Source: a virus
Taxonomy: Duplodnaviria > Heunggongvirae > Uroviricota > Caudoviricetes
Length of the DNA stretch: 15,355 nucleotides
Direction: 5' to 3' (one strand)
IMG/VR virus record: IMGVR_UViG_2671180279_000001
Under the pieces are notes generated by a model. That model saw nothing but the letters and a program-made list of their open reading frames with translations, did no database searches and was not told the origin of the DNA. Of the stretch, positions 3,472 to 13,474 are shown one piece after another. The translations under genes were made by a program, and so were the position numbers. Every line of letters starts with the position of its first letter. Position 1 is the stretch's first letter.

Positions 3472-4779
3472 TTAAATCCGAAGTGATGTGACTCTTCCGG
3501 TCGGTTTGACAATAGGGAATTGCTTAACGATGAAATAACCTCCGGCATCATTCGGGTGATCATTGCCAGATTTTTTATCAGGCTCCCCCTTCTCATCCCA
3601 GACCTGTTGCTCCAGAGATTCGGCATATAACGGGCAACGCTTCACATTAACTTTATAGCGACGCTCACCATTGGCATTGCAGAACATTGCATTCATTGAG
3701 TTAACGCGATCTTTTACTGGCGGGTTCGAGCTGTTCACCACAACGTTAAAACCAGCCTGCTTAAGCTGGGCTATATCCGTCGTACTTGCGTTACTTGATT
3801 TTCTGGAATCCCCGGAAGCATCTGGATAAATATAAATTTCCCTCACTTTCCGGTAATCATTCCCATCATACAGCCAGAAGCGTTCTTTAATGATGCGGAT
3901 CATATCCGGCGTATCGTAGGCATTGATGATTTCAGTTACCGCACATGGAAGCCCCAAACGCAGCACATGGACGATTCCCGCCATCTTTCCAACGTTAAAA
4001 TCCATCCCAATATAAATCGGCTCCCCTGGCTGCTCCACTTCTTCGCAATTATTCAGTTTCCGGTCAAACTGATGGTAAACAGTACCACTTGTCAGGTTAG
4101 TAAACTGTCCTCGAAGATAGGCTTTAATCAGCTCTGGAGGGTATGATTCAAGAAGCGAAGGAATGTAATCTGCTGGCAGGTTCTTTTCATTATCGAAAGT
4201 AGATGCCTGCACCAGACCATACAGTGAGGCCAGCTCTGTTTTTTCACGCACGGCTTTAACAAACTGCTCGTAGACAAATTTGAATCCTTCCGGCGTGGTT
4301 GTAACGTCAATACCGTTGCGAAGTCCATCAATCTTATAACGCATACGTGCAATTATCTTGCGCCACGCCGTTCTGGCTTTTTCCTTCGGCAAAATGTCCA
4401 GTTCATCCACCAACGCATTACCAATTTTGAAACCGACGATCGTTTGTGGCTTCTCCATCGATCTGCAGATAGTGGTTCCCCGATACTGGCGTCCGTAATA
4501 AAAGTGAACCTCTTTATTTCCCTCATTAATTTTTACGTTCAATCCCCAGTCAGCAGCAACTTCTTCTACTGTAGGGTAAAAAATATCGCGAATTTGGGGA
4601 TACGTTGGCGCAAAATATCCCTGATTTATACCTGGATGCTCCCAAATCCCCTTGCATATGCCGCCACACCCAACCCATATTTTGCCCGAGCCAAAACCAG
4701 CAATATAGGCTTTAAATTTATGGGGCATTGAAAGAAATCGCGCCTGAGGCACATTAAGCGTCGGAGAGATCATCTTCAT
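3472..4779 (-). CDS. terL: Terminase large subunit
   Basis: N-terminal Walker A-like AGFGSGK; C-terminal nuclease-like acidic motifs (GMDFN, YPDASGD). Overlaps the small-terminase stop. The ORF track begins at a GTG at 4782; the ATG at 4773 has the best spacing to an AAGGAG Shine-Dalgarno, so the exact start is uncertain. Confidence 0.85.
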   Translation of the reverse strand: MKMISPTLNVPQARFLSMPHKFKAYIAGFGSGKIWVGCGGICKGIWEHPGINQGYFAPTYPQIRDIFYPTVEEVAADWGLNVKINEGNKEVHFYYGRQYRGTTICRSMEKPQTIVGFKIGNALVDELDILPKEKARTAWRKIIARMRYKIDGLRNGIDVTTTPEGFKFVYEQFVKAVREKTELASLYGLVQASTFDNEKNLPADYIPSLLESYPPELIKAYLRGQFTNLTSGTVYHQFDRKLNNCEEVEQPGEPIYIGMDFNVGKMAGIVHVLRLGLPCAVTEIINAYDTPDMIRIIKERFWLYDGNDYRKVREIYIYPDASGDSRKSSNASTTDIAQLKQAGFNVVVNSSNPPVKDRVNSMNAMFCNANGERRYKVNVKRCPLYAESLEQQVWDEKGEPDKKSGNDHPNDAGGYFIVKQFPIVKPTGRVTSLRI

Positions 4780-5848
4780 CACTCCTTACTCTGGCATCAA
4801 CCACATTAATATTGATCGCCACAGGCTGGGGATGTTCATTATCTTCCACCGTTTCGATCTCTTTGCGCAGCTTCTGGTTTTCCATTCTGCGCCGTTCAAT
4901 TTCCAGTTCCTGTAGCCGTTTATCTGCACATAAAGCCCCGCCAGCAGAAAACAAACGCAACAATTCACGCCGGGCGGCAGCCTTATCCTCCAGCAGGATC
5001 TCAACGCCGAATTTTCCGAATTTTGCCCCTGCATATAATTGCCGCGCATCCCCATCAAGCAGAGTGGTATCAGCCATATAAAGCTGTCCCGTTCCCTCAC
5101 CGCAGCACTTCGGGCAGTCCGGATTGGGTATGGCGTTATCAACAAAGCCGAGGCCTCCATATTCCGGTTCGGGTTTGCCATCTCTGGAAGCCTGCGCCGC
5201 TGCCTTGTCGAATTCTGCTATATCGCGCCACTGGTAGAGATGATTCTCGCCCCAGCAATAACGGCAGTTAACACGGCGAAATTGTGCAAGCTGATTGGGG
5301 TCGGCCAGGACAATAGCCATCAACTGACTCACTAGTAAATCCAGGTCTGCGGTATAGCGTTTCTGGTACTGATTGCGGAAGTAGCTGATAGCGCGAAAAA
5401 CCCTGGCATTTCTAAGCATACGACTGGCGTTGCTGTTAGCTGTCGCACCTTGCCCCTCATAACCGGCTAGTCGGTACGCCTCTGTCGGCTTTTTACCCTG
5501 AGCAACAAGCATCGCAAACTTAGCCTGCTGGTCAGAAATGCCGAATTCATCGGGACAGAACGAAAATTCCTCCGCGTCGCCCTCATTCAGGCCCGCATCG
5601 AATACTGGCTTTTTTTCCTGAGATTTTTCGTTCCGCTTTTGTGCAGTCTGCGCAGATTTTTTCTGCGCACTTTTTTGCGCAGTTTTGCACATTTCTGTCT
5701 GCGCATTTTTCGGAGTTTTTTTGATGTAACGACGGGCTGTTGCGTAATTCAGTCCCCTTGCTTCACACCATGCCACCGGAGATATACCGGAGCGGGTGTA
5801 TTCAGCAATATACTCCTGCTGCAACGCCCCCCAGTCCGGTCTGCTCAT
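4754..5848 (-). CDS. terS: Terminase small subunit, unusually long (364 aa), with N-terminal HTH-like region, AQK-repeat linker and Cys-rich C-terminal region
   Basis: Motif KKPTEAYRLAGYEGQGATANSNASRMLRNARV resembles the conserved small-terminase (Terminase_2-like) signature; lies immediately upstream of and overlapping terL; contains CRYC...CPKCC. Confidence 0.7.
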   Translation of the reverse strand: MSRPDWGALQQEYIAEYTRSGISPVAWCEARGLNYATARRYIKKTPKNAQTEMCKTAQKSAQKKSAQTAQKRNEKSQEKKPVFDAGLNEGDAEEFSFCPDEFGISDQQAKFAMLVAQGKKPTEAYRLAGYEGQGATANSNASRMLRNARVFRAISYFRNQYQKRYTADLDLLVSQLMAIVLADPNQLAQFRRVNCRYCWGENHLYQWRDIAEFDKAAAQASRDGKPEPEYGGLGFVDNAIPNPDCPKCCGEGTGQLYMADTTLLDGDARQLYAGAKFGKFGVEILLEDKAAARRELLRLFSAGGALCADKRLQELEIERRRMENQKLRKEIETVEDNEHPQPVAININVVDARVRSDEDDLSDA

Positions 5849-7892: not shown

Positions 7893-9368
7893 TTAGGAGC
7901 GCCAAAAAAAACCTGAAAACAATATAATAACAGGATAAATTTCAAGGCGACCAAGAATCATAGCTATGCACATTAAACATTTTGCAATGTCATTAAGCAC
8001 TCCGAATGACGATGCAGTAGCCCCAAAACCTAATCCCATATTATTAATACATGCAGCCACTGTTGCAAATGATGTAAGAAAATCATATCCCATACCATTT
8101 AACACCAGTATAAAAAACACCGTGAAGAGAGTATAAAGAAAAAAGAAACTCCATACAGACCTCATTACACGATCTGTAACTATCTTCCCTCCTACATTTA
8201 CACTCAACAACGCTCTGGGATGAGAAAGCTGATTTATCTCGTGTTTGCTTTGTTTGAAAAGTATAAGAAATCGAAGTGACTTAATTCCACCACAAGTTGA
8301 ACCTATACATCCCCCAAAGAAACTTGACAACAGCAAAAACACTATCGTGTGCGTGGGCCAACTTGCATAATCCTGCGTAGCTAAACCATTATCAGTGAGC
8401 ATGGAGCTGGCAAGAAAAAACGAATGAATAAAACTTCCATGCAAGTCATACATACCTATATGCCAGACCTGGAAAGAGGTAACAATGATCACCCCTAAGG
8501 CTATTAACAGAAAGAAACGAAGTTCAATATCTCTGATTAAAGGTTTTATCGTTTTCCTGCTAATAACAATATACCAAAGAGTGAAGTTGAAAGCCGATAG
8601 CAGGGAAAAAGAACCAGCCACCAGCTCAACCAAATAGTTATTAAAATATCCGATACTCTCGCTATGAGTTGAGAAACCACCAAGCGAAACTGTGGAAATC
8701 CCGTGACAAATAGCATCAAACAAAGGCATTCCTGCAAGTCTATAACAGACAATACAAGCAATACCTAATAAAGAATAAGTTATCCACAGTGTCCGTGACG
8801 TATCGGCCAGGCGGGGAGTGAGTTTGTCATCCTTAAATGGCCCCGGCATTTCTGACTGATAAAGCTTTGCACCACCAATACCCAATAATGGCAATACAGC
8901 AACCGCCAGAACAATAACTCCTAAACCACCTATAAAATTTAACTGTGACCGATAGTACAAATATGCCCGAGGTAATGAACTAACATCATCAATTACAGTT
9001 GCTCCTGTTGTTGTTATTCCAGAAACCCCTTCAAACAGAGCATCAATGAACGTTAAATTAAGTTCTGAGTCAATCCATAAAGGGAATGCACTAATAACAG
9101 AAAACAAAATCCAAAACATTACAATTATAATAAACCCATCACGGGTACGTAATTGAATGCCAGATTTCTTAGTTGTATACCACGCTCCGCCACCAATGCA
9201 AAAAAATATAACGAAAGTTATAAAGAAAACGAACAGGCTTTTTTCTTTATAAAACAATGCTACAACCATTGGTGGCAACATTGAAAGACTATAGAGCCAA
9301 ACCAGGAACCCACACATATGAGTAACAACTCTTACATGAGATGTATTCATATCTAAATATTCTTTCAA
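7893..9368 (-). CDS. trkG: TrkH/TrkG-family potassium uptake protein (prophage cargo gene)
   Basis: Polytopic membrane protein with selectivity-filter-like glycine motifs (GITTTGATV, GGCIGSTCGGIK, NNMGLGFG); sequence from MNTSHVRVVTH... matches my recollection of E. coli TrkG of the Rac prophage. Strongly AT-rich relative to its neighbours. The start is either a TTG at 9368 with an AGGTGG Shine-Dalgarno or the ATG at 9350. Confidence 0.9.
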   Translation of the reverse strand: MKEYLDMNTSHVRVVTHMCGFLVWLYSLSMLPPMVVALFYKEKSLFVFFITFVIFFCIGGGAWYTTKKSGIQLRTRDGFIIIVMFWILFSVISAFPLWIDSELNLTFIDALFEGVSGITTTGATVIDDVSSLPRAYLYYRSQLNFIGGLGVIVLAVAVLPLLGIGGAKLYQSEMPGPFKDDKLTPRLADTSRTLWITYSLLGIACIVCYRLAGMPLFDAICHGISTVSLGGFSTHSESIGYFNNYLVELVAGSFSLLSAFNFTLWYIVISRKTIKPLIRDIELRFFLLIALGVIIVTSFQVWHIGMYDLHGSFIHSFFLASSMLTDNGLATQDYASWPTHTIVFLLLSSFFGGCIGSTCGGIKSLRFLILFKQSKHEINQLSHPRALLSVNVGGKIVTDRVMRSVWSFFFLYTLFTVFFILVLNGMGYDFLTSFATVAACINNMGLGFGATASSFGVLNDIAKCLMCIAMILGRLEIYPVIILFSGFFWRS

Positions 9369-9487: not shown

Positions 9488-9952
9488 TTACTTTAAACAC
9501 TGCTCGGTTATGTATTGCTGAGCACCTTCAAGTTGGGCCTGCATCATTACCAGTCGTTCCCGGAGGGTGAAATAATCCCGTTCAGCGGTGTCTGCCAGTC
9601 GGGGGGAGGCTGCATTATCCACGCCGGAGGCGGTGGTGGCTTCACGCACTGACTGACAGACTGCTTTGATGTGCAACCGACGACGACCAGCGGCAACATC
9701 ATCACGCAGAACATCATTTTCAGCTTTCGCATCAGCTAACTCCTTCGTGTATTTTGCATCGAGCGCAGCAACATCACGCTGACGCATCTGCATGTCAGTA
9801 ATTGCCGCGTTCGCCAGCTTCAGTTCTCTGGCATTTTTGTCGCGCTGTTCTTTGTAGGCGATGGCGTTATCACGGTAATGATTAACACCCCATGACAGGC
9901 AGACGACGATGCAGATAACCAGAGCGGAGATAATCGCGGTTACTCTGTTCAT
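9488..9952 (-). CDS. Rz: i-spanin Rz
   Basis: [76 protein letters not shown]... is near-identical to lambda/phage-21-type Rz as recalled; the ATG at 9950-9952 overlaps the endolysin stop as ATGA. The ORF track's GTG at 9964 is probably not the start. Confidence 0.92.
9547..9732 (-). CDS. Rz1: o-spanin Rz1 (embedded in Rz in the +1 frame)
   Basis: [57 protein letters not shown]...; lipobox VVGC and proline-rich region characteristic of Rz1. Confidence 0.88.
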
Positions 9953-10446
9953 TGCTGACCCCACAAACAGATTTCACGCTCAATCTCACGACGAGTCATG
10001 AGACCTTTCCATTGCTTACCGCCAGCATATGTCCAGCGACGTAGCTGATCACATGCGCCTTTGATATCGCCCTGGTTTATTTTGCGAAGAAGCGTCGATG
10101 TTCTGAAATTGCCAGCACCCACGTTGTAAACGAATGAGTAAAGAGCGCCGCGCGTTGTTTCCGGTATATCGACTTTGATGTACGGGTTAATTTGTCTGGC
10201 GACCGTGGCAAGGTCTTTATTCAGGAGGGCTTTGCATTCTGCTTTGGTATACGTTTTACCGAGCATGATGTCTTTTCCTGTATGCCCGTGACATACAGTC
10301 CATACACCAACAATATCTTTGTATGGTATGTAGCTGACACCTTCCAGACCATCGTTACCACTTGGGCCAGTGATTAACACTGATGCTATAGCAATTGCTC
10401 CGCCACCAATAGCAGCAGCAACGACTTTTCGTAATGATGGAGGCAT
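9949..10446 (-). CDS. R: SAR endolysin (phage-21 R / RrrD-like lysozyme)
   Basis: [33 protein letters not shown]... is a Gly/Ala-rich N-terminal signal-anchor-release domain followed by a T4-lysozyme-like domain; matches DLP12 RrrD / phage 21 R as recalled; start overlaps the holin stop as TAATG. Confidence 0.92.
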
Positions 10447-10661
10447 TATTCACCTCTCGCAGCCTTGCGCTTATCTTCTTTAATCTTGAAATAAAGGTTT
10501 GTCAGGTACGTCAGCAGGCCAAATACCAGACTACCCAGCACACCGATTGCAGCCCACTGTGACGGAGTTACTCTATCGAGCAACTGTAAAAACCAGTAGC
10601 CAGCACTGCCTGCGGAGGTGCCGTAGGCAATGCCTGTTGAAATTTTGTCCATGGATTTCAT
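10446..10661 (-). CDS. S: Class II pinholin (phage-21 S21 / EssD-like) with dual-start motif MKSM
   Basis: 71-aa product [71 protein letters not shown] matches S21 as recalled; GGAGGTGAGG Shine-Dalgarno precedes the ATG at 10659-10661, and a second start (MDK) lies at 10650-10652. The 90-aa N-terminal extension in the ORF track is not supported. Confidence 0.88.
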
Positions 10662-10758
10662 AGCCTCACCTCCGCACGGAACGGATGGCATAGTTATTAT
10701 GTGTAGGCTTTCAGACACATCAATCAGAGCCTTAATTGATATATATGCTGGAGACGAT

Positions 10759-10787
10759 GCAATATAAAAAGCTCGCCGTAGCGAGCT
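10759..10787 (-). terminator. Intrinsic terminator downstream of the lipoprotein pair
   Basis: Minus strand reads AGCTCGC-TACG-GCGAGCT followed by TTTTTATATTG (perfect 7-bp stem). Confidence 0.6.
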
Positions 10788-10912: not shown

Positions 10913-11308
10913 CTAACCTCGCATGTCAAAGCCAGATTTCTGAAAATCTCTGTAGACTTCCGGATTGTTGAAGGCCGGAAATTTGGCTTTATGAGCTGCG
11001 GACTTTATCGCTTCGCAATAGGCTTTATCACCGTTACTGGTAGATATTTTTAACGCCGTGCCATCCTGAGAGAATTCCATATGCAACCTGCATTTTTTCC
11101 CTTTCCAGTTATGCGGCTCATCAAGTTTGGCATTAATTGCAGCTCTGATTCCCCGCGCTTGCGCCCCCCATTCATCCTGATCATCCCAGCGTCCTGAACT
11201 GCAACTACCTGTAGCAGTAGTTTTGTGGCAATCTGAAGGGTGTAAAGGTGTGCATCCCGCAACAAAACCGACCCAAAAAGTCAACATAACGATTTTCTTT
11301 AATCCCAC
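10913..11308 (-). CDS. Predicted outer-membrane lipoprotein with diverged TolA C-terminal (domain III)-like domain
   Basis: GTG start with GAGGAG Shine-Dalgarno; signal peptide MGLKKIVMLTFWVGFVAGC with lipobox VAGC and Thr at +2; C-terminal region GKKCRLHMEFSQDGTALKISTSNGDKAYCEAIKSAAHKAKFPAFNNPEVYRDFQ shares the spacing and two Cys of the downstream paralog and of TolA domain III. Confidence 0.7.
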   Translation of the reverse strand: MGLKKIVMLTFWVGFVAGCTPLHPSDCHKTTATGSCSSGRWDDQDEWGAQARGIRAAINAKLDEPHNWKGKKCRLHMEFSQDGTALKISTSNGDKAYCEAIKSAAHKAKFPAFNNPEVYRDFQKSGFDMRG

Positions 11309-11458
11309 TTCTTGCTCCTCAATCCATTAAAATCTCAGCAATAGTAGTTGTTACGTCCGCCACTGGCTCAGAGCTGACTATCCGCTAAATTTAGCTCAGT
11401 GCCGTAGCTGTGTCAGAACAAACCTAAGCCGAAACCGTTTATTACAAAACAATAAATA

Positions 11459-11887
11459 TCAGGGTTTAAAATCCAGCACCCCATTTTGAAATACTTTATA
11501 TACTTCCGGCGAAGGGGGGGCAGGTATATCAGCATTCTTTATCGCATTCATCGCTTCACGACATAAATCGAGGTCTCCACTTTCTCTTTTAACCTCCAGT
11601 AGAAGGCCATTCGGGGCCATATGCATTCTCAGTGTACACTCTTTTCCTGAATACTTACTCGCATCCCCGAACTGTTTTTCGATGGCGCTCTTGATTTGAT
11701 GGGCATACAGACGGATATCCTCACTAACATCAGAAGTACGTTCAGATGAACTCACATACTGTGTCTCTATTGCTTTATCGGAGTAATATGATGTACGGTC
11801 ATGATAATTTGTCGATACAGCATCAGTGCACCCGATAATAATCCCACTAATAATCAACGTAAGAATTGATGCGCTACGAAAACCCAT
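11459..11887 (-). CDS. Predicted outer-membrane lipoprotein carrying a TolA C-terminal (domain III)-like domain
   Basis: Signal peptide MGFRSASILTLIISGIIIGC with lipobox IIGC and Thr at +2; C-terminal 80 aa YAHQIKSAIEKQFGDASKYSGKECTLRMHMAPNGLLLEVKRESGDLDLCREAMNAIKNADIPAPPSPEVYKVFQNGVLDFKP align colinearly with the end of chromosomal E. coli TolA as recalled (...YAGQIKSAIESKFYDASSYAGKTCTLRIKLAPDGMLLDIKPEGGDPALCQAA...IPKPPSQAVYEVFKNAPLDFKP), both ending in LDFKP; GAGGA Shine-Dalgarno. Confidence 0.85.
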   Translation of the reverse strand: MGFRSASILTLIISGIIIGCTDAVSTNYHDRTSYYSDKAIETQYVSSSERTSDVSEDIRLYAHQIKSAIEKQFGDASKYSGKECTLRMHMAPNGLLLEVKRESGDLDLCREAMNAIKNADIPAPPSPEVYKVFQNGVLDFKP

Positions 11888-11917
11888 TTTTCCTCACATA
11901 TGTCATATAGTAAAGGA

Positions 11918-11947
11918 TTATATATACCGTTGTTTTGGACGCTCAAA
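11918..11947 (-). promoter_or_regulatory. Candidate sigma-70 promoter for the lipoprotein pair (TTGAGC-18 nt-TATAAT)
   Basis: Minus strand: -35 TTGAGC (11942-11947), 18-nt spacer, -10 TATAAT (11918-11923), about 30 nt upstream of the ATG at 11887. Confidence 0.4.
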
Positions 11948-12473
11948 CAGCGAATCAGATCAAATAAAACGCACATTTGTTAACATTTACACAAAGTCTG
12001 CGTGGGATATTCTGAAAGAATATCCATAATGTGGAGAGAATCTATTGAAGTGCATGGTGCCGGGTGCCTCCCGGTGAACAAAATGTTCGTGATACCTGTC
12101 GGCGACAGAAAAGGTTAATGGTATCACCCCACCGCACAGGGGGATTCACCATGCAGGAGTTTTCTTAGCAAACTCACTGCGCGCCCGGCAACTCCCAACC
12201 ACATAAAATGCGGAGTTTGTGGTATTTATGCATATAACTCGCAGGAATTATCTTAAAAAACTGATGTCGATCCGGATTAAAAAGAAGCAGGTCATCATCA
12301 GATGACTGGAAAAAAGGAAAACAAAAAATACTCATCATACAGTTTTGATTGCAGGGATGAGCCTGCTATGCACAATATGCAGAATATAAGCAAGATAAAA
12401 ATATGCAGGCATATTATTTCGGATTTTGTTATTAACACAACCTTTTTAATAATCATTTGGCATACAATAAACC

Positions 12474-12504
12474 AGCCCAAAAAGAACCGCCTAAACAGGC
12501 GGTT
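12474..12504 (-). terminator. Intrinsic terminator-like hairpin (minus strand)
   Basis: AACCGCCT-GTTT-AGGCGGTT (8-bp stem) followed on the minus strand by CTTTTTGGG. Confidence 0.45.
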
Positions 12505-12823
12505 GGTCAATACAAAGGATGCTTCGTCTTTATTATAGTAATCTGAGGCGTCGGGTGTCTTGTATCAGACAACATATTGTCCCGCTAAACAGCGAATTAC
12601 AAACCACCCTGCAATGATCTCTCATCTCATTTTATATGAGTTGACGACATCAGGATAACGCATCATCAGCCCCTGCCAAGAAATATCAAAACTCCCGCCA
12701 GCAATGTGTTATCACAATATTGTAAAAAAAACACAGCACCGAAACTATAACTGGTCTCTGTTATAATTTGGAGCAGAAAGACCAGTTGCCCAACTAGCAG
12801 CATTCTCCCCTGCTTTCCTGACG

Positions 12824-12852
12824 TAAAAAAACCGCATTAAGCGGTTTTTTTA
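12824..12852. terminator. Bidirectional intrinsic terminator; on the minus strand a tR'-like terminator downstream of the Q gene
   Basis: AAAAAAACCGC-ATTAA-GCGGTTTTTTT: perfect stem flanked by an A7 and a T7 run, about 80-100 nt downstream of the Q stop (12932), the classic position of tR' in lambdoid late regions. Confidence 0.7.
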
Positions 12853-12931
12853 CGATGTCCATGTCTGCAATCCGCCTCGCGATACAGCTTTGCGAAGCAT
12901 AGCAAAATTGAAGCAGTTTATACGTAAGAAA

Positions 12932-13474
12932 TCAAGCCATTTTCTCAGCAAATGATTCACGCATGGGAATATATAGGGCATACTCAGCAACAGCTAACCA
13001 ATTAGCAATCCGTTTTTCGCATGTGCTAAAACACCACTCTGGGTGTGCATCATTTAGCAATTCAGCCATTTTGCGCTTAGTCATCCCCCGCCCTTCATAG
13101 CGTTGCCGGAGAATGCAAATCAATCCTGGATGCTCTGCCAGCACCTCACTTATGACTCGATCAATACATAACGCCTCTGCATCAGTACAATGCGCCAGCC
13201 AGCTCTTTTGCTTGCCGTTGATCATCTCTCGCAAAAACGCTTCCAGCTCAGCTTTCTCTATTCCCGCTTTTTTCATTCTGCGCAGGGCTTCATTAATGGC
13301 TGTTTTCGTCAGTTTTTTGGATGCCAACAACTGATTGAACATATTCCCTGACCTGCCACCGCCAATATACGACCAGCGCCCCCACATACGTAGTTTTCCC
13401 TGAATCCAGACACTTTCCAGCGTGGTGAGGCGAAGGTGTTCTCCGCTTTTTCCTGTATTCGTTGGGTAAATCAT
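12932..13474 (-). CDS. Putative late-gene antitermination protein Q (Q-like, non-lambda type)
   Basis: 180-aa ORF immediately upstream of the tR'-like terminator and the lysis cassette; N-terminal RMWGRW motif resembles the WG-W motif of Q-family proteins (recalled from DLP12 QuuD); start overlaps the upstream stop as ATGA. Confidence 0.55.
   Translation of the reverse strand: MIYPTNTGKSGEHLRLTTLESVWIQGKLRMWGRWSYIGGGRSGNMFNQLLASKKLTKTAINEALRRMKKAGIEKAELEAFLREMINGKQKSWLAHCTDAEALCIDRVISEVLAEHPGLICILRQRYEGRGMTKRKMAELLNDAHPEWCFSTCEKRIANWLAVAEYALYIPMRESFAEKMA

Follow-up and report, generated by a model that had tools for sequence, protein, structure and literature searches.

Why does a prophage carry, between its late regulator and its lysis genes, two small predicted lipoproteins that end in a copy of a host import protein? 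We analysed a window of 15,355 nucleotides (IMG/VR virus record IMGVR_UViG_2671180279_000001, Caudoviricetes), which is a lambdoid, Rac-like E. coli prophage with two such genes between its Q-position gene and its lysis genes. Both lie on the minus strand: ORF-A (11459..11887) encodes a predicted outer membrane (OM) lipoprotein of 142 aa with a copy of domain III of TolA (TolAIII) at its C terminus, and ORF-B (10913..11308) encodes a predicted OM lipoprotein of 131 aa with a diverged TolAIII domain. We propose, with a probability of about 0.5, that ORF-A and ORF-B may act as unpowered, OM-tethered decoys that capture group A colicins and the g3p protein of filamentous phages.

ORF-A has the ribosome-binding site (RBS) GAGGAAAA 5 nt ahead of its ATG. 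Its TolAIII-like domain (residues 51-142; 11462..11737, minus strand) matched the Pfam family TolA_C (PF06519) with E=2.4e-23 and 82.6 bits against a cut-off of 25. In a phmmer search of PDB sequences (1s62, 3qdp, 1tol, 2x9a), residues 55-142 matched residues 334-421 of E. coli TolA (E~5e-28) without gaps, 52 of the 88 positions (59%) being identical; moreover, C84 and C109 were in register with C363 and C388 of TolA, and both proteins end in LDFKP. In the AlphaFold2 model, pLDDT exceeded 90 throughout the domain but stayed under 50 for the first 50 residues. The best Foldseek matches of this model were 3qdp, 2x9a_B and 1tol (rmsd 0.6-1.7 Å); it superimposed on 2x9a_B with an rmsd of 0.6 Å and a TM score of 0.96, and on g3p-bound TolAIII with 0.6-0.7 Å.

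ORF-B starts at a GTG with GAGGAG 6 bases ahead, which gives a normal Lys-Lys n-region; the RefSeq version (WP_001348108.1, 124 aa) starts 7 codons late and loses this region. ORF-B matched TolA_C with E=1.3e-14 and 54.6 bits against the cut-off of 25, and its residues 51-129 matched TolAIII in the phmmer search (E~5e-9) with 27 of 79 positions (34%) identical and with C73 and C98 in register with C363 and C388. The cysteines are spaced by 25 in ORF-A, ORF-B and TolA, and both ORFs contain the motif PEVY..FQ. The ORF-B model, too, had its domain at a pLDDT above 90 and its first 41 residues below 50, and TolAIII structures were again the top Foldseek matches (rmsd 1.1-1.3 Å; 3qdp at 1.1 Å and TM 0.92). 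The linker of ORF-B (residues 20-48; 11165-11251) reads C-x-PLHPS-x-CHKTTA-x-GSCSSGRWDDQDEWG, has two extra cysteines and the segment RWDDQDEWG, and was modelled with low confidence; its S-G-x-W...W-G spacing is one that we take to resemble the TolB box of colicins E9 and A. The initial annotation, made from the letters alone, had placed both genes within 10913-11947, aligned ORF-A with the very end of TolAIII including both cysteines and LDFKP, described ORF-B as more diverged with the same Cys spacing and PEVY..FQ, and suggested profile and Foldseek comparisons with TolAIII as a check; the two minus-strand genes, the ungapped alignment of ORF-A and the divergence of ORF-B were all confirmed, and both PF06519 and the TolAIII structures matched both ORFs.

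Both proteins carry a lipoprotein signal as defined by a rule of the PROSITE PS51257 type, i.e. Lys or Arg in the first 7 residues, a hydrophobic core, a lipobox of the form [LVI..][..][AGS]C, and the Cys at 15-35. In ORF-A, the signal peptide and lipobox (11828..11887, minus strand; MGFRSASILTLIISGIIIGC) include IIGC with Cys20, Thr at +2 and Asp at +3; in ORF-B the lipobox is VAGC with Cys19 and Thr at +2. The pattern was found in 22 of 27 full-length members of the ORF-A family and in 114 of 120 members of the ORF-B family, and ORF-A variants of 65-91% identity retain the lipobox and its Cys (LTAGC, LTTGC). In E. coli, Asp at +2 is the signal for retention in the inner membrane (IM). Across the two families the +2 residue is A, T, S, G, V, Q, N or similar and never Asp, so that default sorting to the OM is predicted for ORF-A and ORF-B. 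The N-terminal 50 residues of ORF-A and 41 residues of ORF-B consist of signal peptide and disordered linker, with no membrane anchor and no domain II. Thus, the earlier description of lipoprotein signals (IIGC/VAGC, Thr at +2) in place of the TolA anchor and domain II agrees with the PS51257-type rule.

Searches with models of full-length TolA gave partial matches. NF007065 scored 107.8 for ORF-A and 53.7 for ORF-B against a cut-off of 213 and aligned only over model positions 293-386/387, and TIGR02794 scored 75.6 for ORF-A against a cut-off of 59.45, yet covered only positions 265-362/362. Because these models match only the C-terminal ends, neither ORF-A nor ORF-B is an orthologue of TolA, and the names given in RefSeq, 'TolA' and 'tolA pseudogene', are misleading. 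The PGAP annotation (NZ_CP033250.1, 12760-13020 of the locus extract) covers no more than the final 87 codons of ORF-A, which it calls a 'tolA' pseudogene 'missing N-terminus', a label that arises because the full-length TolA model matches only the C-terminal end of ORF-A. The dN/dS ratio of the ORF-A domain was 0.12 against the 91% variant and 0.26 against the 66% variant; that of the whole ORF-B gene was 0.06-0.17 against twelve genera, with the linker as the most constrained part (0.02-0.09). Since both genes are under purifying selection, the pseudogene label of ORF-A is wrong, and the reading as a pseudogene was rejected on the basis of dN/dS ratios well below 1 for both genes together with their conservation. 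In total, we conclude that the label is a systematic annotation artefact that hides a conserved gene. A C7 homopolymer within the ORF-A codons for PAPPSP (11514..11520, minus strand; G7 on the plus strand) has frameshifts of +/-1 in ~27 of ~600 database records, and the resulting products of 156-163 aa lack the last helix and the ligand-binding strand beta3; these frameshifts could be the result of sequencing error or of phase variation.

Binding was judged by mapping published interface residues onto the sequences of ORF-A and ORF-B. The g3p-N1 domain, colicin N (ColN) and the N terminus of TolB bind strand beta3 (415-420) and helix 1 of TolAIII (PMC4339652, PMC7391070); binding of all three depends critically on the D418 and K420 backbone amides, and TolA point mutants that lose this strand addition have a full tol phenotype (PMC4339652). 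In ORF-A, beta3 (LDFKP) is identical to that of TolA, with D139/K141 corresponding to D418/K420, and 11 of 16 residues of helix 1 (DI..YA.QIKSAIE) are identical. Colicin A (ColA) binds the strand 375-380 with cation-pi contacts to K368, K379 and K396 (PMC3365938). At this site, LLDIKP has become LLEVKR in ORF-A, in which K379 and K396 are retained and K368 is replaced by His. In ORF-B, beta3 reads FDMRG, keeping the Asp and having Arg for Lys (D128/R130) with the remainder diverged, and the strand of the ColA site reads TALKIS. Because the binding faces differ strongly, with ORF-A near to TolA and ORF-B diverged and equipped with a constrained extra linker, the two proteins probably have different ligand ranges. 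Domain III had initially been described as the docking site of TolB, Pal and CpoB and of g3p and group A colicins; TolB, g3p, ColA and ColN stand, whereas CpoB binds domain II and a direct contact between TolAIII and Pal is disputed (PMC7391070), which leaves TolB as the only firm host partner of this domain.

As decoys, a role that the initial annotation had already put forward, ORF-A and ORF-B would leave the cytoplasm, acquire a lipid anchor and reach the periplasmic side of the OM, and each would present a free TolAIII domain on a flexible tether of ~20-30 residues. Having neither an IM anchor nor domain II, they would not be coupled to the TolQR motor. Two exposed beta-sheet edges would be offered for strand addition, namely beta3 together with helix 1 (for g3p-N1, colicin N and the TolB N terminus) and beta2 (for colicin A). 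Located just below the OM, a decoy would meet the translocation domain of an incoming colicin, or g3p borne on a retracting pilus, ahead of the real TolA; the invader would be trapped in a dead-end complex, and the lysogen would tolerate filamentous phages as well as Tol-dependent colicins. Lipidation, location in the OM, binding of ligands, activity of the genes in the lysogen and protection of the cell are inferred here.

Published affinities favour such a scheme. TolAIII binds ColN at ~1 µM and g3p-N1 at ~12 µM (PMC4339652, PMC7391070), and its affinity for TolB is weak, at 40-200 µM (PMC7391070). Because the invaders bind in the micromolar range and TolB at 40-200 µM, a modest amount of decoy should trap invaders at little cost to Tol-Pal. 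Moreover, g3p-N1 produced in the periplasm sequesters TolA and causes resistance to colicin A and a 4-log drop in phage uptake (PMC10424213). The decoy reading is also backed by the conservation of the ORF-A edges, by purifying selection and by the recurrence of the lipobox-TolAIII architecture. In 1993, Levengood-Freyermuth, Click and Webster reportedly found that wild-type cells with an excess of TolAIII in the periplasm become tolerant to colicins E1, E2, E3 and A.

The distribution of the two genes was followed across genomes, plasmids and phages. We found 786 records with a match of at least 99% identity to the 1451-bp block of this locus, and 771 of 5426 complete E. coli genomes (~1 in 7) contain 80% or more of it; other ORF-A alleles were found in no fewer than 136 additional genomes, including many of Shiga toxin-producing E. 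coli. Relatives of ORF-A occur almost exclusively in E. coli and Shigella. Its 91% and 66% variants are solitary in the Q-to-holin slot of other prophages, with Q of the PF03589 or DUF1133 type; no ORF-B remnant was detected beside these solitary variants by tblastn, homology with the 91% variant loci ends exactly at the ORF-A stop codon, and ORF-A together with its upstream small RNA (sRNA)-like element was found without ORF-B. Some of the variant prophages have a Stx-phage-like layout with nanS-p, DUF826 and holin, in which ORF-A occupies the stx-like slot upstream of nanS-p. The prophages with the 66% variant have an AraC-family regulator (HTH_18) directly upstream, a TfpB-like gene before it and nanS-p (DUF1737-SASA) downstream, a late region of Stx-phage-like type in which the TolA mimic takes the place of the toxin. 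In the Qin-like phage mEp460_ev081, the ORF-A/ORF-B pair lies between Q and holin.

Relatives of ORF-B form 368 clusters at 90% identity and are solitary wherever present. They occupy non-syntenic chromosomal sites in Citrobacter, Enterobacter, Klebsiella, Raoultella, Leclercia, Pantoea, Rouxiella and others, and are present with ~88% nucleotide identity on ~600 plasmids of E. coli and Shigella (PLSDB records). On pO157 the relative is downstream of the psiB-psiA-hok genes (locus L004, 5815-6246), and on I-complex plasmids it is immediately 3' of the relaxase gene nikB (e.g. an IncK2/Z plasmid; locus L198, 5001-5432). The unit common to plasmids and other genera consists of RBS and ORF only (11343-10910).

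ORF-A and ORF-B were found side by side only in the present E. coli/Shigella prophage block. Among ~80 IMG/VR prophage contigs, about half match the window only from ~12080 to ~10440, i.e. over ORF-A, ORF-B and holin. The upstream recombination junction (~12080) falls inside an element of the STnc100 prophage sRNA family (11998..12184, minus strand; Rfam RF02076, 86.6 bits against a gathering score of 47), the outer stems of which are conserved between backbones while its centre differs. ORF-A and ORF-B are identical at 25 of 79 positions (32%), and ORF-A is nearer to TolA than to ORF-B. A recent tandem duplication was rejected on this identity, the closeness of ORF-A to TolA and the separate distributions. 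Judged by these patterns, ORF-A and ORF-B are two independently mobile genes that were brought together. The view of the initial annotation that they are tandem paralogues in a self-contained cassette is misleading, given the 32% identity, the separate distributions and a recombining block (~12080-~10440) that includes the holin; its assignment to a lysogenic-conversion-type position holds, with ORF-A variants in the stx-like slot and the pair between Q and holin in mEp460_ev081.

Expression signals around the pair are as follows. A sigma-70-like promoter candidate for ORF-A and ORF-B (TTGAGC-18-TATAAT; 11917..11946, minus strand) matches the consensus at 10 of 12 positions; it is a consensus match only and is identical in mEp460_ev081, and its -10 element is TGTAAT, i.e. 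degraded relative to TATAAT, in the loci of the 91% ORF-A variant (94%-identical relative). ORF-B itself is not preceded by a conserved upstream region. Downstream of ORF-B and ~100 nt ahead of the holin is a hairpin resembling an intrinsic terminator (10760..10787, minus strand; AGCTCGC-TACG-GCGAGCT plus U tract, -13 kcal/mol), with its stem at 10787..10770 and a UACG loop. Of the promoter and terminator with which the pair had been credited, the terminator thus stands, and the promoter is a candidate by consensus that is weakened in one allele. Among the hallmarks of a moron, we observed presence/absence variation, a fixed slot and a terminator, together with this consensus promoter weakened in one allele. 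The STnc100-family element, which belongs to an already described group of prophage sRNAs akin to PasD (bioRxiv 10.64898/2026.05.13.724894), adjoins ORF-A on its upstream side and travels with this gene. The final hairpin of the element is without the U tract present in the family consensus, so that transcription might conceivably continue into ORF-A. No LexA box indicative of SOS control was found near ORF-A and ORF-B. A 'TolA'-type gene of CP-933O, EDL933_2012, was reported as 32-fold induced by ciprofloxacin (PMC11125564); the RAST-style gene names suggest that the adjacent holin may have been meant.

The architecture recurs beyond this locus. When 1.84 billion cluster representatives were searched with a profile, 593 hits were obtained; among the best 150 of these 593 (50%-identity cluster representatives), 81 are 100-190 aa long and 53-57 of those have a lipobox. 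The named members of this stand-alone TolA_C family are from Enterobacterales. On Klebsiella ColRNAI plasmids of 10-12 kb, a 123-aa TolA_C lipoprotein gene overlaps that of a secreted 121-aa TonB_C protein (NZ_CP107420.1; locus L003, 6445-7178), and this pair adjoins a colicin-like tRNase, an immunity gene and a lysis gene. On Klebsiella chromosomes, a secreted TonB_C protein precedes an ORF-B-family member of 47-53% identity (loci L034-L037, ~4517-5399). The two pairings share 28-30% identity and have opposite gene orders. A perfect LexA box lies on the ColRNAI plasmid (L003, 7961-7976) where the bacteriocin gene and the TolA_C/TonB_C side diverge. In databases, the family goes under 'cell envelope integrity TolA C-terminal domain-containing protein', 'tolA family protein' and phrog_5772 ('unknown function' in PHROGs). 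Full-text literature searches turned up no publication about TolA-like genes on mobile elements, and the PADLOC defence library had no match for ORF-A or ORF-B; the initial statement that such genes have no described function agrees with these searches and with the phrog_5772 entry.

These contexts bear on the decoy reading. The sites of the ORF-B relatives on pO157, I-complex plasmids and chromosomes fit a benefit to the host rather than a role in lysis. Bacteriocins and several phages hijack the two energised import routes, Tol and Ton, and the TonB_C pairing and the bacteriocin-plasmid context are circumstantial evidence that fits a defence against import. Equally circumstantial is that the pili of the conjugative plasmids that carry ORF-B relatives are receptors for TolA-dependent filamentous phages. 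Several points weigh against decoys. The relatives of ORF-A were found only directly upstream of lysis genes, and the moving block includes the holin, which would fit a role in lysis. With a promoter that is a consensus match degraded in one allele, expression may be mainly late and Q-dependent. The binding edges of ORF-B (FDMRG; TALKIS) have diverged. The PADLOC defence library lacks a match, and, because Ff-type phages need conjugative pili, a benefit against phages would be limited to pilus-bearing hosts. Finally, excess periplasmic TolAIII reportedly also makes cells leaky (Levengood-Freyermuth 1993), so that a decoy may carry a cost.

The same leakage counts in favour of the alternative that survives best, which is that the two mimics bind the TolB N terminus at the OM, compete with TolA and so lower Tol-Pal activity. 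The pay-off of such dampers would be a loosened OM with more vesicles, periplasmic leakage, or easier OM rupture and phage release on Q-driven late expression. In favour of this alternative, the pair belongs to the late transcription unit and closely precedes the holin, the SAR-type lysozyme and Rz/Rz1; ORF-A, ORF-B and holin recombine as a single block; and every ORF-A relative found occupies the Q-to-holin slot. Moreover, the TolB site (beta3) of ORF-A is identical to that of TolA, TolA mutants that lose strand addition show a full tol phenotype (PMC4339652), and a review of Tol-Pal proposes that modulation of the TolB interaction could regulate vesicle production (PMC7391070). However, at a TolAIII-TolB affinity of 40-200 µM large amounts of the proteins would be needed, the Rz/Rz1 spanins are intact so that a function in OM disruption is not missing, and a terminator lies between ORF-B and holin. 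Likewise, ORF-B relatives and other family members are present on plasmids and chromosomes with no lysis genes nearby, and the TonB_C pairing has no obvious link to lysis. We consider both the damping of Tol-Pal and its supposed pay-off unlikely, at about one chance in five.

Somewhat less likely again is that the TolAIII fold, chiefly that of ORF-B, has been neofunctionalised as a strand-addition adaptor for another partner unrelated to the Tol ligands, such as an OM protein, a component of conjugation or entry exclusion, or a TonB-box-like segment. ORF-B shares just 34% identity with TolA and differs from it at the binding edges, the linker that holds RWDDQDEWG and two additional cysteines is the most constrained part, relatives of ORF-B lie directly 3' of the relaxase in I-complex transfer regions, and strand addition to TolAIII is promiscuous (PMC4339652). 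Yet ORF-B retains the fold, the disulfide and the D128/R130 pattern of beta3; for ORF-A, a changed specificity is not the simplest reading, given how near it is to TolA; and the highly variable gene contexts yield no candidate partner. That the genes are non-functional debris, decaying fragments of a captured tolA, is highly improbable: PGAP does call ORF-A an incomplete tolA and some copies are disrupted or frameshifted, but the label is explained by a full-length TolA model that matches the C-terminal end only, ORF-A is complete with RBS, signal peptide and lipobox and conserved across variants of 65-100%, dN/dS is far below 1 for both genes, and the 1451-bp block is conserved in 771 of 5426 complete E. 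coli genomes.

If the proteins are decoys, they might exemplify something broader. We tentatively suggest, at somewhat less than even odds, a large unrecognised class of 'import-hub decoys' on the mobile elements of Enterobacterales, comprising OM-tethered TolAIII copies, sometimes with secreted copies of the TonB C-domain, that would confer toxin-agnostic tolerance to whole classes of bacteriocins and to pilus-dependent filamentous and TonB-dependent phages, in that the invaders would be caught ahead of the energised Tol or Ton machinery, and of which ORF-A/ORF-B would be a two-specificity version.

The remainder of the locus is that of a lambdoid prophage. The Q-position gene (12932..13474, minus strand) matched DUF1133 and, weakly, Phage_antitermQ in Pfam. 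About 400 nt downstream of it are a promoter-like site, AAGACA-18-TATAAT (12561..12532, minus strand, within 12473-12561), and, 3' of this site, a strong terminator-like hairpin (12504..12485, minus strand), which are possibly a late promoter with a Q-dependent terminator. Weak isrK-like matches were seen at 12770-12898, and no tRNA genes were found in the Q-to-holin gap. Downstream of the pair, Pfam identified a phage-21-type holin (10446..10718, minus strand; RefSeq essD, 10446-10661), a SAR-type lysozyme (9949-10446) and Rz (9488-9964), with Rz1 at 9547-9732. The potassium transporter gene trkG (7893-9368, minus strand) lies between the lysis and head genes, a placement as in the Rac prophage; in strain ECCHD184 the flanks are ynaK and hokD, with ydaT-like genes further out, indicating that the window is a fuller relative of the K-12 Rac prophage.

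Colicin immunity is normally toxin-specific, with one immunity protein per colicin, and the exclusion lipoproteins known from prophages work by blocking a receptor in the OM. If the decoy reading is true, a mobile decoy of a shared periplasmic entry hub would amount to broad-spectrum protection, which could shape competition among gut E. coli, given a block present in 771 of 5426 genomes and ORF-B relatives on pO157 and I-complex resistance plasmids, and could affect the outcome of colicin- or phage-based therapy. Conjugative plasmids could be shielded from filamentous phages that exploit their pili, and Tol-Pal research would gain natural competitive inhibitors of the TolA-TolB contact. Regardless of function, the RefSeq tolA-pseudogene label on ORF-A conceals a conserved gene.

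Among known systems, the closest is domain III of E. coli TolA itself (PF06519; 1S62, 3QDP, 1TOL, 2X9A), with which ORF-A and ORF-B share the fold and the disulfide; ORF-A also has conserved sequences for beta3 and helix 1, to which g3p, ColN and TolB bind in TolA. In contrast to TolA, the two proteins lack the anchor, domain II and coupling to TolQR and the proton motive force, have a lipoprotein signal, and are encoded on prophages and plasmids rather than in the tol-pal operon. The periplasmic TolAIII of Levengood-Freyermuth 1993, which reportedly gave colicin tolerance, was likewise a free and unpowered competitor, as was the laboratory periplasmic g3p-N1 with respect to the TolA-ligand contact (PMC10424213). 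Both of these were engineered, soluble and over-produced, whereas ORF-A and ORF-B are natural and predicted to be lipid-anchored to the OM. The exclusion lipoproteins Llp of T5, Cor of phi80 and N15, TraT of F and Bor of lambda are small OM accessory proteins of mobile elements that protect the carrier cell, acting on OM receptors (FhuA, OmpA) or in serum resistance. They are unrelated in sequence to ORF-A and ORF-B, for which the mechanism proposed here is mimicry of a periplasmic import hub. The stand-alone TolA_C lipoproteins of ColRNAI and MPF_I plasmids, pO157 and I-complex plasmids (phrog_5772) have the same lipobox-linker-TolAIII architecture; the copies on pO157 and on I-complex plasmids are members of the ORF-B family (88% nucleotide identity), and family members elsewhere are solitary or paired with TonB_C, unlike the side-by-side ORF-A and ORF-B. 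Altogether, we hypothesise that mimicry of an import hub by a lipoprotein of a mobile element is a variant of both the exclusion lipoproteins and the dominant-negative TolAIII of the laboratory.

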